From Patescibacteria group bacterium (GTDB taxonomy: Bacteria; Patescibacteriota; UBA1384; 2-12-FULL-50-11), in assembly GCA_040900165.1 (NCBI GenBank), contig JBBDZM010000003.1, forward strand, positions 1-44,023: a stretch of DNA of 44,023 nt, written 5' to 3'. The notes beneath the pieces were generated by a model, which was given only the letters and a program-made list of their open reading frames with translations, was not told where the DNA came from and did no database searches. Position numbers and translations under genes: made by a program. Numbering within the stretch: position 1 is the stretch's first letter; every line of letters begins with the position of its first letter. Shown in pieces: positions 23,861-42,681 of this stretch.

Positions 23861-23983
23861 ATGAAAAATACGAATATCGAATATCGAATATCGAAACAAA
23901 TCCAAAGCACTAATCCTAAAAATCAAAACGTTTCGAATTTCGAAATTAGAATTTCGTATTTCCAAACCAGAGGTTTGGTCTGA
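23861..23983 (+). repeat. Heptamer inverted-repeat insert 1 with 40-aa mini-ORF and SD hairpin
   Basis: Arms 23866-23897 / 23930-23961 (26 of 32 complementary; TATCGAA x3); hairpin CCAAACC-AGA-GGTTTGG; ORF ATG 23861 to TGA 23983 overlapping rpsG ATG. Confidence 0.85.
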
Positions 23984-24456
23984 TGCGTGGACGAAGCAAG
24001 ATGAAAAAACCAGTTTTGGTGCTCGAACTTAAATACAACGATCCGCTGGTCTCTAAATTTATCAATAAAATTATGTGGGATGGCAAGAAGGAAACTGCCC
24101 AAAACATTGCCTATGCGGCGCTGGAGAAACTGGCGGCCGAGCTAAAGACCGAGCCAGCACCGTTGCTGCGCGAGGTTATCGAAAAAGCTTCCCCAATTCT
24201 GGAAGTCCGCTCTCGCCGAGTTGGTGGCGCTACCTATCAGGTACCGATGGAAGTCAAACCCGGCCGCAAAACCGTTTTGGTGATGCGCTGGTTACTAGAA
24301 GCCGCCCGGGGCCAAAAGGGTCGCAATATGACCGATGCTCTCTACGGCGAAATGAAAGATATCCTCCAAGACACCGGTAAAGTGATGAAAAAGCGCGAAG
24401 ATTTGCACAAAATGGCCGAAGCCAACCGGGCCTTTGCTCACTTTGCGCGGTACTAA
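23983..24456 (+). CDS. rpsG: 30S ribosomal protein S7
   Basis: EVRSRRVGGATYQVP, HKMAEANRAFAH. Confidence 0.98.
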   Translation: MRGRSKMKKPVLVLELKYNDPLVSKFINKIMWDGKKETAQNIAYAALEKLAAELKTEPAPLLREVIEKASPILEVRSRRVGGATYQVPMEVKPGRKTVLVMRWLLEAARGQKGRNMTDALYGEMKDILQDTGKVMKKREDLHKMAEANRAFAHFARY

Positions 24457-24663
24457 ATGGATTCTTACGGGAGTACTGGACCTAGTTGGAATTGGAAGCA
24501 AACGCTTGCTATTGCACTGATTTCTGCAGTCCTGGCCTATTTTTGGCAGTATCCAAAATTTAATTTTGATTGGAATATATACCTCATAAGGTTTGTGGTC
24601 CTTTACACATTTAGTGGGATGTCAGTAGTACTCCACGATATGTACAAAACAGTAAAAAAATAA
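24457..24663 (+). CDS. Small two-TM hypothetical protein inserted between rpsG and fusA
   Basis: 68 aa, abuts rpsG stop, TAATG overlap with fusA, two hydrophobic segments. Confidence 0.7.
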
Positions 24664-26759
24664 TGGCTAGAGTTTACCCTTTAGATAAAGTTCGCAATAT
24701 TGGAATCATCGCCCACATCGACGCCGGTAAAACGACCGTTTCCGAGCGAATTTTATATTTTACAGGTAAAACTTACAAAATCGGCGAAGTTCACGAAGGC
24801 GCCGCTGTTATGGACTGGATGGAGCAGGAGCAAGAGCGCGGCATTACTATTACCGCCGCCGCGACCACCGCTTTTTGGAAAGATCACAACATTAATATTA
24901 TCGACACGCCGGGTCACATCGATTTTACGATTGAAGTTCAGCGTTCCCTGCGGGTTTTGGACGGCGCTGTTACCGTTTTTGACGGAGTAGCCGGCGTTGA
25001 GGCCCAATCGGAGACGGTTTGGCGCCAAGCCGACAAATATAAAGTTCCCCGAATTTGTTTTGTTAACAAGCTCGACCGAATCGGCGCGGATTTCAAACAC
25101 GTCGTCAAAACTATCCAGGATCGTCTTGGCGCCAAAACTGCCGTTATCCAACTGCCAATCGGCACCGAAGACCAACTGAAAGGCGTCGTTGACCTGCTTC
25201 AAAACAAGGCCGTTATCTGGAGCGACGATATAACCAAGCAGCCAACAATTGAAGATGTCCCGGCCGATATGCTCTCCGACGTTGAAAGTTATCGCAATAA
25301 ACTTATTGAACAGATCGCCGAAACCGACGAAGCGTTAATGGAAAAGTTCTTTGCCGGCGAAGAACTTGGTGTTGACGAGCTTAAGGCCGCCCTGCGTAAG
25401 TCCGTCTTGAACGTCGAAGTTTTCCCAGTTTTGGCCGGATCGGCCCTGAAAAACAAGGGTGTCCATACCCTGCTAGATGCGGTTTTGGATTACTTGCCCT
25501 CGCCGCTCGACAAACCGCCCGTTAAGGGAACCGATGTCAAAGACGCCGAGAAAGAGCTTGAGCGCGCCGTCTCCGACGATGAACCGTTTACGGCACTGGC
25601 CTTCAAGGTGGCTACCGACCCATACGTTGGCTCGCTAACGTTCTTCCGAGTCTATGCCGGTAAACTGACGGCTGGCTCGTACGTTTTAAACAGCTCCAAA
25701 GGCGATAAAGAGCGCGTTGGCCGAATTGTTCGTCTCCACGCCAACTCCCGCGAAGACGTTACCGAAGTCTACGCCGGCGATATCGCCGCCGCCGTTGGCC
25801 TAAAAGCCACCACTACCGGCGATACCCTCTGCGCCGAAAACGCCCCGATTATTTTAGAGCGCATTACTGTACCGGAGCCGGTGATAAAGATGTCGATTGA
25901 GCCAAAAACCAAAGCCGACCAAGAAAAAATGGGCGCCGCTCTCCAGCGCTTGGCCGCCGAAGACCCAACATTACGCTTGAGCCAAGATGACACCACCAAT
26001 CAAACCCTAATTGAAGGCATGGGGGAGCTCCATTTGGATATTATCGTCGATCGGATGAAACGGGAATTCAAAGTCGACGCCACTAAAGGGCAACCCCAGG
26101 TTGCCTATAAAGAGGCAATTACTAAAGCCGTTAAACAGGAAGGTAAATACATTAAGCAAAGCGGTGGCCGTGGTCAGTACGGTCACGTTTGGATTGAGAT
26201 TGAGCCAATGGAAACCGGCCAGGGTTTCGAATTTGTTAACAAAATTACCGGTGGTACGATTCCCCGCGAGTTTATCCCATCAGTGGAAAAGGGCGTCAAA
26301 GACGTAGTCTCCAAAGGGGTTATCGCGGGATATCCGCTAGTTGATGTCCGAGTGGCACTTTACGACGGCTCGTATCACGACGTTGACTCGAGCGATGTGG
26401 CTTTTCAAGTCGCTGGTTCGATGGCAATGCGCGAAGGCGTCAAAAAAGCTGGCGTCGTGATTCTTGAGCCAGTTATGAAAGTGGAAGTGACCACTCCCGA
26501 CGAGTTCTTTGGTAATGTCGTTGGCGATCTTAATAGCCGCCGTGGGCGAGTAATCGGTACCGAAAATCGCGGTAACGCTAAGATTGTTAATTCGATGGTG
26601 CCGCTATCGGAGATGTTTGGCTATATTACTGATTTACGGGGCATGAGCCAGGGGCGATCGGCCTATACGATGGAGTTTGATCACTATGAGCAAGTTCCTC
26701 GCAACATTGCTGAAGGTATAATTGGTAAAGTAGCGCCAGTAAAAGTTTCCGAAGAGTAA
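24663..26759 (+). CDS. fusA: Elongation factor G
   Basis: [32 protein letters not shown]. Confidence 0.99.
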
Positions 26760-26778
26760 AAATATATCTCAAGGGCTG

Positions 26779-26808
26779 TTGACTAGATTACTAATTTACG
26801 GGTACAAT
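26779..26808 (+). promoter_or_regulatory. Putative internal promoter for tuf
   Basis: TTGACT-18 nt-TACAAT; AAGGAG SD before tuf. Confidence 0.55.
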
Positions 26809-26877
26809 TACCCAGAAACTTACTGTAATATATATTTGTTACACTAAAATAAAAGGTTAAGTAAAAGGAGTTAAATA

Positions 26878-41491: not shown

Positions 41492-42206
41492 GCTCGACTG
41501 TCTCAAAAAAGCCGGAAATATTGCCCAAAAAGCCCACGCGGCAGCAAAATCGTTAATTGCGCCGGGCGTTAACGTCGAGGACATTGAGCAGGCAGTTAAA
41601 AAAGTGATTGTTGACGCTCAGATGCGTCCAGCTTTTCTGGGCTACAAAGGCTATCCAGCCGCAACTTGCATCTCGGTTAACGAGGAGGTAGTTCATGGGA
41701 TACCGAGCGGACGAATTCTAGAAGAAGGCGACGTTGTATCAGTTGATCTTGGTGTTGAGTACGGTGGGTATATAGTTGATACCGCCAGAACCCACCCGGT
41801 TGGTAAGGTAACAGTACCCGTTCAAAAACTTCTGGAAGTTACCAAGGAAGCACTCGCCAAGGCAATAACTAAGGCGAAAATTGGCAACAAAACTGGTGAC
41901 ATCGGCGATATTGTCCAACGAACGGTCGAAGGAGCAGGTTTTCAAATTGTTCGTGATCTAACTGGCCACGGCGTCGGTAAAACCCTCCAAGAACCGCCCT
42001 CAATACCTAATTTTGGCAAGCCAGGTAGTGGAGCTATCTTAAAAGAGGGGATGGTCTTAGCGATCGAACCAATTACCACCCTTGAGCCAACTACTATCGC
42101 CGTTAAGGCTGATGGCTGGACAATTGTGACGATGACAGGGACCGTCTCGGCCCATTATGAAGACACCGTTATTATCACCCAAAACGGCCCAGTCGTCTTG
42201 ACGTGA
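41481..42206 (+). CDS. map: Methionine aminopeptidase type I
   Basis: CISVNEEVVHGIP, GHGVG, AIEP, AHYEDT. Confidence 0.97.
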   Translation: MENKLDCLKKAGNIAQKAHAAAKSLIAPGVNVEDIEQAVKKVIVDAQMRPAFLGYKGYPAATCISVNEEVVHGIPSGRILEEGDVVSVDLGVEYGGYIVDTARTHPVGKVTVPVQKLLEVTKEALAKAITKAKIGNKTGDIGDIVQRTVEGAGFQIVRDLTGHGVGKTLQEPPSIPNFGKPGSGAILKEGMVLAIEPITTLEPTTIAVKADGWTIVTMTGTVSAHYEDTVIITQNGPVVLT

Positions 42207-42227
42207 CAGGGTTAATCCAGGTATAAT
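42198..42227 (+). promoter_or_regulatory. Putative promoter for infA (near-leaderless)
   Basis: TTGACG-18 nt-TATAAT ending 9 nt before the ATG; no SD in between. Confidence 0.55.
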
Positions 42228-42236
42228 TTTCTCCAG

Positions 42237-42458
42237 ATGTCGGAAAAAGAAGGTGTTATTGAGCTGGACGGTCTCGTTGACGAGGCTCTGCCCAATACCC
42301 AGTTTCGCATCGTTTTAGACAATGAGCAGGTAATCACCGGCTATGTCTCGGGCAAGATTAGACGCAACCGTATCAAAATATTGCCCGGCGACAGAGTAAC
42401 GGTTGAGCTTAGCCCCTATGATTTAACTAAAGGGAGAATCACTAGAAGACTGACATGA
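42237..42458 (+). CDS. infA: Translation initiation factor IF-1
   Basis: [26 protein letters not shown]. Confidence 0.98.
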
Positions 42459-42568
42459 AAGTACACGTTGGCCTTAAACCACGCTGCCAAAAATGCAAAA
42501 TTATCCGCCGCAAGGGGGTACTTCGAGTAATTTGTGAAAATCCCCGACACAAACAGCGACAAGGTTAA
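42455..42568 (+). CDS. rpmJ: 50S ribosomal protein L36
   Basis: Manual translation: [37 protein letters not shown]. Confidence 0.97.
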
Positions 42569-42570
42569 AA

Positions 42571-42681
42571 AGAATTATGAATTACGATTTAAGAATTATG
42601 ATTATGGACAACACTGATTTTTCTGCCCATAATTCAATATTCATAATTCAGAATTCTGCTGTTTCCGGAGGAAACAGCTGA
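42571..42681 (+). repeat. Heptamer inverted-repeat insert 3 with 34-aa mini-ORF and SD hairpin
   Basis: Arms 42571-42600 / 42628-42657 (24 of 30 complementary; GAATTAT-type units); hairpin GCTGTTTCC-GGA-GGAAACAGC; ORF ATG 42577 to TGA 42681 overlapping rpsM ATG. Confidence 0.85.

Follow-up and report, generated by a model that had tools for sequence, protein, structure and literature searches.

Heptamer-armed palindromes with coupled mini-ORFs between ribosomal-protein genes of a Patescibacteria group bacterium: probable mobile elements related to rRNA intervening sequences

The stretch of DNA considered here (the window) is the whole of contig JBBDZM010000003.1 (C3) of assembly GCA_040900165.1, 44,023 nucleotides from a Patescibacteria group bacterium (source genome, G000), read on the forward strand. 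Within its ribosomal-protein operons the gaps between rpsL and rpsG, rplW and rplB, and rpmJ and rpsM (flanking genes confirmed by Pfam as S12/S7, L23/L2 and L36/S13) are each occupied by an insert, here called I1, I2 and I3. A first-pass annotation, made from the letters of the window, had described the three as a family that combines arms of degenerate 7-mers, a hairpin bearing the Shine-Dalgarno (SD) sequence and a small open reading frame (mini-ORF) coupled to the downstream gene, and had explained them as either a non-autonomous mobile element or a ribosome-gated switch.

Architecture of the three inserts

Common to all three gaps is a long imperfect AT-rich inverted repeat made of degenerate 7-mers, the arms of which are 20-32 nt long and 80-90% complementary, and enclose gene-free loops of 27-76 nt. 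Two overlapping variants aside, these are the longest local inverted repeats of the 44-kb window. On the 3′ side of the arms lies a short GC-richer hairpin, with the motif RGAGG within its loop and 3′ stem, placed exactly 9 nt from the downstream ATG, and the insert closes with the overlap terminus TGATG. A stop-free mini-ORF, the sole open sense frame in each case, crosses the whole insert; none of the three predicted peptides matched a Pfam family. These features, including the mini-ORF lengths of 40, 49 and 34 aa, were read directly at all three gaps, as first described. They are, in window coordinates:

23861-23983, + strand: I1 mini-ORF, 40 aa; ATG 5 nt past the rpsL stop, TGA overlapping the rpsG ATG; no Pfam family
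23866-23897, + strand: I1 left arm, TATCGAA-type 7-mers; 81% complementarity, period-7 run
23930-23961, + strand: I1 right arm, TTTCGAA-type 7-mers; complementarity and fold
23962-23985, + strand: I1 SD hairpin (23962-78) and TGATG; 7-bp stem, AGA loop; covariance model R1 (see below), E = 6e-5
31974-32123, + strand: I2 mini-ORF, 49 aa; start overlapping the rplW stop as ATGA, TGA overlapping the rplB ATG
31985-32004, + strand: I2 left arm, AAACTCT type; another, partial copy of this arm at 32018-32038
32081-32112, + strand: I2 right arm; TTTCGAATTTCGA..TTAGA..TTT in common with the I1 right arm
32103-32125, + strand: I2 SD hairpin and TGATG; model R1, E = 6e-5
42577-42681, + strand: I3 mini-ORF, 34 aa; ATG 9 nt past the rpmJ stop, TGA overlapping the rpsM ATG
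42571-42600, + strand: I3 left arm, GAATTAT type; 80% complementarity
42628-42657, + strand: I3 right arm, ATAATTC type; complementarity and fold
42658-42683, + strand: I3 SD hairpin (42658-78) and TGATG; 9-bp stem, GGA loop, −13 kcal/mol; model R1, E = 3e-4

The I1 gap extends from the rpsL stop (23854-56) to the rpsG ATG (23983), with AGAGG as SD and TGATG at 23981-85, and the I3 gap from the rpmJ stop (42566-68) to the rpsM ATG (42681), with GGAGG as SD and TGATG at 42679-83. The I2 gap, between the rplW stop (31975-77) and the rplB ATG (32123), has GGAGG as SD and TGATG at 32121-25; its best arms (31985-32004 and 32081-32100) are 90% complementary, and an alternative pair is formed by 32018-38 and 32092-112. 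Pairing of the arms thus holds in all three inserts, while the spacer of 27-32 nt initially assigned to all of them applies to I1 (32 nt) and I3 (27 nt) but not to I2, where it measures 76 nt (53 nt when the alternative arms pair) because its left side holds an extra segment and a second partial arm. When folded as RNA and compared with dinucleotide shuffles, the three inserts gave z values of −3.7, −2.4 and −3.6, with 0, 4 and 0 of 200 shuffles folding equally well, in agreement with the expectation that the arms fold. I1 and I2 are 73% identical across 55 nt. DNA contigs from four runs of one study span all three inserts unchanged and with no joint at them. A search for RNA runs containing window positions 23400-33399 found none.

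Empty and filled junctions among relatives

Orthologous junctions were compared in 40 relatives, whose relationship extends from genus to class level, by taking a gap of at least 80 nt as filled and any shorter gap as empty; L088 (start codon unclear), L052 (no rplW match) and one N-containing gap in L207 were left out of the junction tests. Both states were found: 8 of 30 loci were filled at rpsL-rpsG, 6 of 29 at rplW-rplB and 7 of 30 at rpmJ-rpsM, and the empty loci read TAATG, TAAAATG or similar. The three genomes of the same genus are empty at all three junctions. Where filled, the junctions of relatives show the same architecture built from different 7-mers.

Copies at different junctions of one genome may closely resemble each other. 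In G007 the rplV-rpsC and rplW-rplB inserts are 94% identical in their first 48 nt and 86% identical in their last 66 nt, and in G006 the rplB-rpsS insert is 97.6% identical to that of rpsL-rpsG over 42 nt and the rplW-rplB insert 85% identical to that of rpmJ-rpsM over 61 nt. The unit in common between copies runs from the mini-ORF ATG through TGATG, and similar SD modules are also found at different junctions in different genomes. An orthologous pair, that of G006 and G013 at rplV-rpsC, shows 95% identity over 81 nt. A search of related loci based on S7 returned period-7 arrays upstream of the gene in 2 of 80 cases. Among named records, the nearest S7 proteins come from metagenome-assembled genomes labelled Candidatus Saccharibacteria (85% identity) and Candidatus Berkelbacteria (71%). 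A heptamer-armed hairpin also occupies the rpsL-rpsG gap of a metagenome-assembled genome labelled Candidatus Ratteibacteria (L147), outside Patescibacteria, so that the phenomenon may extend further.

The reading frame across the inserts

Preservation of the frame was tested on 20 filled junctions, taking the frame in which the A of the downstream ATG is the third position of the final codon. This coupling frame is stop-free in 17 of the 20, against 1 of 40 for the other sense frames, 2 of 60 for the antisense frames and 402 of 10000 for mononucleotide shuffles, and the junction ends in TGATG or TAATG in 15 of the 20. All 17 open frames have an ATG within −3 to +32 of the upstream stop, and in ten of them it falls at −3 to +1, in ATGA, TAATG or TAAATG arrangements. 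At independent junctions (rplB-rpsS, rplV-rpsC, rpsC-rplP, rpsH-rplF and others in G006, G007, G013 and G015) the rule is obeyed by 7 of 9 heptamer inserts, with the start being uncertain in one.

The predicted peptides differ wholly between orthologous junctions, following the local 7-mer, and the only feature that they have in common is a C-terminal Gly-Gly, which is the SD sequence read as codons. What is conserved would thus be the act of translation rather than its product.

The Shine-Dalgarno hairpin and the long arms

Of 30 distinct junction inserts, 19 contain a hairpin with an NGA triloop and a stem of at least 4 bp, and in 14 of these 19 a 5-nt SD is followed, after exactly 9 nt, by the ATG. 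In a gapless alignment of the hairpins, the rows of which had been preselected for at least four stem pairs, 89.5% of the cells pair, compared with 54% in shuffles (reached by none of 500), and 54 cells are changed on both sides, compared with 19 in shuffles. Both-side changes occur at seven of the eight stem pairs, and sliding the partner columns drops pairing to 29-54%. Pairing is therefore kept, and the geometry fixed, while the sequence varies, as had been noticed for the three copies of the window. Six of 19 rows have U-G closing pairs, an indication that selection acts on the SD hairpin in its sense-RNA form; the energy of this hairpin has a median of −5.6 kcal/mol (range, −0.7 to −13.1).

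A covariance model (R1) was built from the hairpin plus TGATG, which by design favours the terminal motif and not a long open frame. Hits were obtained in 10 of 41 genomes. Of the 19 that belong to the family, eight are hit (G000, G006, G007, G009, G010, G011, G013 and G015) and the other 11 are not, a pattern that arises partly by construction because all seven genomes contributing training rows are among the eight. Of 23 non-training hits with loci, which lie upstream of fusA, rpsL, rpsI, rplX, rpsB, tsf, nusA, gltX and others, 16 display a full ATG..T[GA]ATG mini-ORF through heptamer arms, three a shortened one and four none. The possibility that SD hairpins are a general habit of the lineage was rejected: a loose scan of 623 gene starts gave 50 mostly chance hits, and R1 is confined to element-bearing genomes.

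Selection of the long arms as RNA was also considered and dropped, the G-U test showing no sense-strand signature. With respect to transcription the elements are polar, with a C-rich and G-poor left arm and loop, and a G-rich right arm, in 14-17 of 20.

A genome-wide family of period-7 elements

The assembly comprises 589,614 bases in 20 contigs and is 93% complete; genes beyond the window were called with a crude longest-ORF caller. BLAST of the three inserts against it revealed related arms on many contigs. A scan for periodicity requiring at least 17 of 21 matches yielded 39 runs at period 7 and 0-5 at periods 4-6 and 8-11, and at 15 of 21 there were 90 period-7 runs, compared with at most 33 at any other period, which form 46 clusters. 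The three inserts are therefore not a family of three, as supposed, and belong to a genome-wide one. Of the 46 clusters, 30 are intergenic, mostly between co-directional genes and near the downstream start, and 16 lie within ORFs. The heptamers vary from copy to copy (TTCGAAA, GAATTAT, AAACTCT, CCCAAAC, GAATCGT and ATAATAG types). [quoted passage not shown] The family copies in other intergenic regions of G000 contain stops in every frame, so that the frame rule depends on context.

Period-7 arrays within ORFs stay in frame. The most complete is that of DinB (C9:28029-29438, L215), where a full 105-nt hairpin (28369-28473) adds 36 residues to the IMS domain; shorter in-frame arrays are found in MnmA, uracil-DNA glycosylase (udg), two class I tRNA synthetases, PPDK and phosphoglucomutase. 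The dinB insert, of 30-55 aa and at one codon position, is present in G000, G006, G009 and G011 and absent from G001, G002, G004, G007 and G012, the same site being occupied in four genera. A 19-nt mini-palindrome that covaries stands ahead of the insert in G000, G006 and G011 and consists of the host Leu-Glu-Leu-Pro codons and their inverted copy.

A second hairpin subfamily, with ATAATAG-type arms and a conserved GC-rich loop hairpin, lies downstream of genes (C17:7914-8012, C9:69428-69518 and C9:90206-90294), and rpsR on C17 is flanked by two hairpins from different subfamilies. Upstream of argS (C9 end, L203; C16:7480-7960) there are tandem units of about 80 nt without heptamer arms, each made up of a 27-aa mini-ORF and a triloop hairpin with the SD, closing with an ATGA overlap, and with the first 8 nt the same as those of argS; the assembly breaks at these units (N run, contig end).

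Relationship with rRNA intervening sequences

One member of the family resides in 23S rRNA (C16, L202), where 93 nt replace the 9-nt loop of the Rfam large-subunit (LSU) model near position 160, at a helix tip. The same gene has a second insertion of about 90 nt, non-heptamer, at LSU model position ~282. Another copy carries cargo: at C11:1248-1634 inverted 7-mer arms flank a gene for a 128-aa protein that matches PF05635 (23S_rRNA_IVP, E = 6e-40) and TIGR02436, and weakly the diversity-generating-retroelement protein Avd. The statement, made with the initial description, that similar 7-mer flanks surround genes for four-helix-bundle proteins of the intervening-sequence (IVS) family (IVP) is thus correct for this very genome, and for relatives as well. 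IVP genes are present in 23 of the 41 genomes, and many of the 30 loci examined in relatives are bracketed by short inverted heptamer arrays and lie between co-transcribed genes (e.g. atpD-atpC, nifS-nifU, after rpmF, before rpsO). Within the family, 18 of 27 junctions are filled in IVP-positive genomes, compared with 1 of 29 in IVP-negative ones, shared ancestry being ignored in this count.

These observations may be set beside published ones. In Coxiella the 5′ arm of the IVS contains three heptamers in tandem and is cleaved there by RNase III, according to passages of PMC4990558; parts of a survey of rRNA genes of the candidate phyla radiation (CPR) describe short uncharacterized insertions at known IVS sites and IVP genes within rRNA insertions (PMC11270868); and IVP genes were earlier reported, in a portion of PMC3936711, as 'associated' with cas operons, e.g. 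between cmr3 and cmr2, which fits a habit of lodging at operon junctions.

Other features of the operon

Most neighbouring genes had been said to abut or overlap; six further gaps also exist in the same operon (24456-24663, 26759-26878, 28414-28482, 29066-29357, 30158-30477 and 37034-37117). The rpsG-fusA gap (24457-24663) holds a 68-aa hydrophobic ORF without a Pfam family, and a similar small hydrophobic ORF is found there in relatives. Between rpsJ and rplC (28482-30158) lie three non-ribosomal genes, one for an Ig-like protein (Gmad2), one for MsrA and a 90-aa ORF that matches no family; in relatives the size of this gap ranges from 0.6 to 6 kb.

Interpretation and alternatives

Any interpretation has to accommodate what is directly observed, that is, membership of a family, presence or absence at given sites, the frame rule, covariation and fixed geometry of the hairpin, paralogous copies and the links with IVP and rRNA. 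We consider it probable that the inserts are cargo-less mobile palindromes related to IVSs, which persist at stop/start overlaps as a translated coupling relay. Copies would have landed at former TAATG overlaps of translationally coupled ribosomal-protein genes, and each would now act as a mini-cistron with an ATG that coincides with the upstream stop or closely follows it, an open passage through the arms, a half-buried SD 9 nt upstream of the next start and a stop overlapping that ATG. A ribosome finishing the upstream gene would restart on the mini-ORF, melt the long hairpin and the SD hairpin, terminate on TGATG and restart on the downstream gene, so that by this relay coupling would survive the insertion; the half-masked SD is proposed to limit independent initiation and thereby to keep the old stoichiometric coupling. 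Insertions without a relay would be purged from coupled junctions and survive elsewhere. Polarity due to Rho is an unlikely reason for keeping the insert translated, because the Rho RNA-binding domain was not found in the 93%-complete genome. Of the two explanations initially offered, that of a non-autonomous mobile element at gene starts, which brings its own SD and preserves coupling, finds support in the empty and filled sites, the frame rule, the covariation and the paralogous ends, while the masked SD is in keeping with a ribosome-gated switch, which would more likely describe how the element stays harmless than a separate function.

A number of points weigh against this reading. From sequence we infer the translation of the mini-ORFs and their coupling, and gating of initiation by the hairpin, mobility and cleavage of the RNA by RNase III are likewise predictions. 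The frame rule is broken by three of the 20 filled junctions (L021, L076 and L077) and by one of the nine in the second set, and the open frames of L007, L019 and L020 run past the downstream ATG. Covariation of the inner pairs of the SD hairpin is biased because rows were chosen with at least four pairs, the outer pairs being unselected. The sense RNA of the long arms is stabler than the antisense in only 7 of 20 cases, with a mean difference of +2.8 kcal/mol favouring the antisense, and the palindrome may matter as DNA rather than as RNA. ATG or T[AG]ATG at both ends of 10 of the 17 open junction copies could equally reflect selection for coupling, which makes a target-site duplication ambiguous. 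The association with IVP is phylogenetically uncorrected and has exceptions, G013 being filled without IVP and G017 and G018 bearing IVP at empty junctions. As for a mobiliser, the search for a transposase, which was confined to Y1_Tnp, found none; no gene resembling a transposase could be linked with the family, and the only gene associated with the elements is that of IVP, which is not a known transposase. A reverse transcriptase (RVT_1; C18:1078-2148, L263), with no Pfam-recognizable Avd adjoining, was rejected as a candidate, as it is present in insert-free relatives and missing from the insert-rich G015. Finally, the contigs of the four DNA runs, which are blind to rare variants, contain no empty-site form and give no sign of ongoing movement here.

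Selection by the host offers another account, an unlikely one in our judgement, according to which the inserts are regulatory devices, namely RNase III sites for operon processing or ribosome-gated switches or thermometers that set the protein ratio, and mobility is incidental. The long stems have the size of RNase III substrates and the genome encodes RNase III (C9:9135-9524); a family member sits in 23S rRNA, where the IVSs of other bacteria are cut by this enzyme; the SD is partly masked; and the U-G pairs speak for selection of the SD hairpin at the RNA level. In Neisseria, RNase III likewise cleaves the Correia elements of mRNAs, as stated in a section of PMC10969869. However, close relatives, including all three of the same genus, make do with a bare TAATG at the same junctions, and the same type of element recurs at more than 15 junctions, in coding genes and in rRNA. 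An RNase III site has no need of an open frame, cleavage within a translated mini-ORF would strand ribosomes, and the long arms show no sense-specific pairing. It is considerably less probable still that the repeats were generated locally, with slippage expanding 7-mers in AT-rich gaps, hairpins arising through local inversion or duplication, and selection trimming the stops. Copies at different junctions within one genome have their ends in common, one SD-hairpin module recurs across junctions and genomes, genomes are wholly filled or empty in a way that tracks the IVP gene, and an identical dinB site is occupied in four genera. The differences in 7-mer from copy to copy and the negative search for Y1_Tnp are what local origin has in its favour, along with the heptamer direct repeats near start codons that, according to PMC4679880, are common in several phyla and have no known vehicle, and for which slippage has been proposed.

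That the mini-ORFs encode functional micro-proteins appears very improbable, since the peptides of orthologous junctions are unlike each other and set by the local 7-mer, no Pfam family is recognized and Gly-Gly is merely the SD as codons; the conservation of open frames with an ATG and a coupled stop is the one observation in its favour. Equally improbable, and close to refuted, is an autoregulatory binding site for ribosomal proteins, like the S7 site (rpsL-rpsG) and the S4 site (before rpsM) of Escherichia coli. Two of the three insert positions coincide with these regulatory sites. Rfam yielded no match at gathering score anywhere in the window, so that an existing family does not already account for the inserts, and a permissive scan of the three loci returned only Alpha_RBS, at the rpsM start and below threshold (19.1 bits versus a gathering score of 38, E = 0.71). 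Orthologous sites have no sequence conservation, most relatives have no insert at all, and the same architecture stands ahead of many non-ribosomal genes.

Returning to the mobile palindromes, a wider proposal may be made, possible although doubtful at present. The gene for IVP (an Avd-like four-helix bundle) and the heptamer palindromes would together constitute one unrecognized class of mobile element, homing to stop/start overlaps, rRNA helix tips and fixed enzyme positions such as that of dinB, and the cargo-less derivatives would have evolved a portable relay (start, open palindrome, masked SD, overlapping stop) with which they could colonize the most essential operons of minimal genomes. 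If RNase III also cut the untranslated hairpin, the element would tie survival of the mRNA to its translation.

How IVSs spread, and what the four-helix-bundle protein does, has been a question since IVSs were discovered. One tiny genome holds here the same kind of element in rRNA, at mRNA junctions and in coding genes, and since sister species differ cleanly in elements and IVP gene, the question can be addressed by comparing them and with assays of binding, cleavage and reporter expression. The inserts would also represent a new route by which selfish DNA persists in the most constrained site of a reduced genome, namely by bringing its own translational coupling cassette. On the practical side, gene callers will miss or mis-call the mini-ORFs and may fuse or extend neighbouring genes, and the repeats break assemblies, one contig ending within such a unit.

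Comparison with known systems

In the literature covered, with supplementary tables (including those of PMC11270868 and PMC4679880) outside the scope, there was no description of heptamer-armed palindromes with coupled mini-ORFs, of a palindromic element carrying a translational relay or of IVS-like elements in ribosomal-protein operons. The closest relatives are the 23S rRNA IVSs of Coxiella, Leptospira and Salmonella, which likewise have a long stem formed by terminal inverted repeats, an optional IVP (S23p) cargo and a sporadic distribution. Tandem heptamers in an arm, as described for Coxiella in passages of PMC4990558, and the position of one sister copy at a 23S helix tip add to the resemblance. 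In contrast, the window copies are gene-free and located in mRNA, between genes for proteins. The rRNA IVSs lack the SD hairpin, stop/start overlap and open frame that these copies possess, and excision is putative here.

Rickettsia palindromic elements (RPEs) are short selfish palindromes tolerated in translated sequence by staying in frame, according to a section of PMC10969869. The likeness rests on the sister copies (dinB, mnmA, udg and tRNA-synthetase genes) and not on the three copies of the window, and RPEs, compared by description only, fall into defined families by sequence, are about 150 bp long and lack period-7 arms. No RPE is known to us to constitute a separate coupled mini-cistron between genes. 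Correia and enterobacterial repetitive intergenic consensus (ERIC) elements, MITEs of Neisseria and enterobacteria, are similarly non-autonomous, co-transcribed inverted repeats with hairpins that affect the mRNA, but they have conserved sequences, defined target duplications and, in some cases, promoters, whereas the arms considered here are variable and heptamer-periodic. To our knowledge, none carries a translational relay.

The intergenic heptamer repeats of the TAACTGA type (Beggiatoaceae, cyanobacteria, Bacteroidetes) are also near start codons and patchy, with indels in steps of 7 nt and no known function, as presented in parts of PMC4679880. They are, however, direct repeats of one heptamer, unlike the paired inverted arrays found here, which have a heptamer of their own in each copy and are joined to an SD hairpin and a coupled ORF. 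The short tandemly repeated repetitive (STRR) sequences of cyanobacteria are a related type of heptamer repeat. In classical translational coupling the stop overlaps the start, the SD lies in a hairpin and the upstream ribosome opens this hairpin. The relay proposed here would be alike in mechanism, with the difference that the cassette is a repeated, apparently mobile unit placed between two genes and part of neither.

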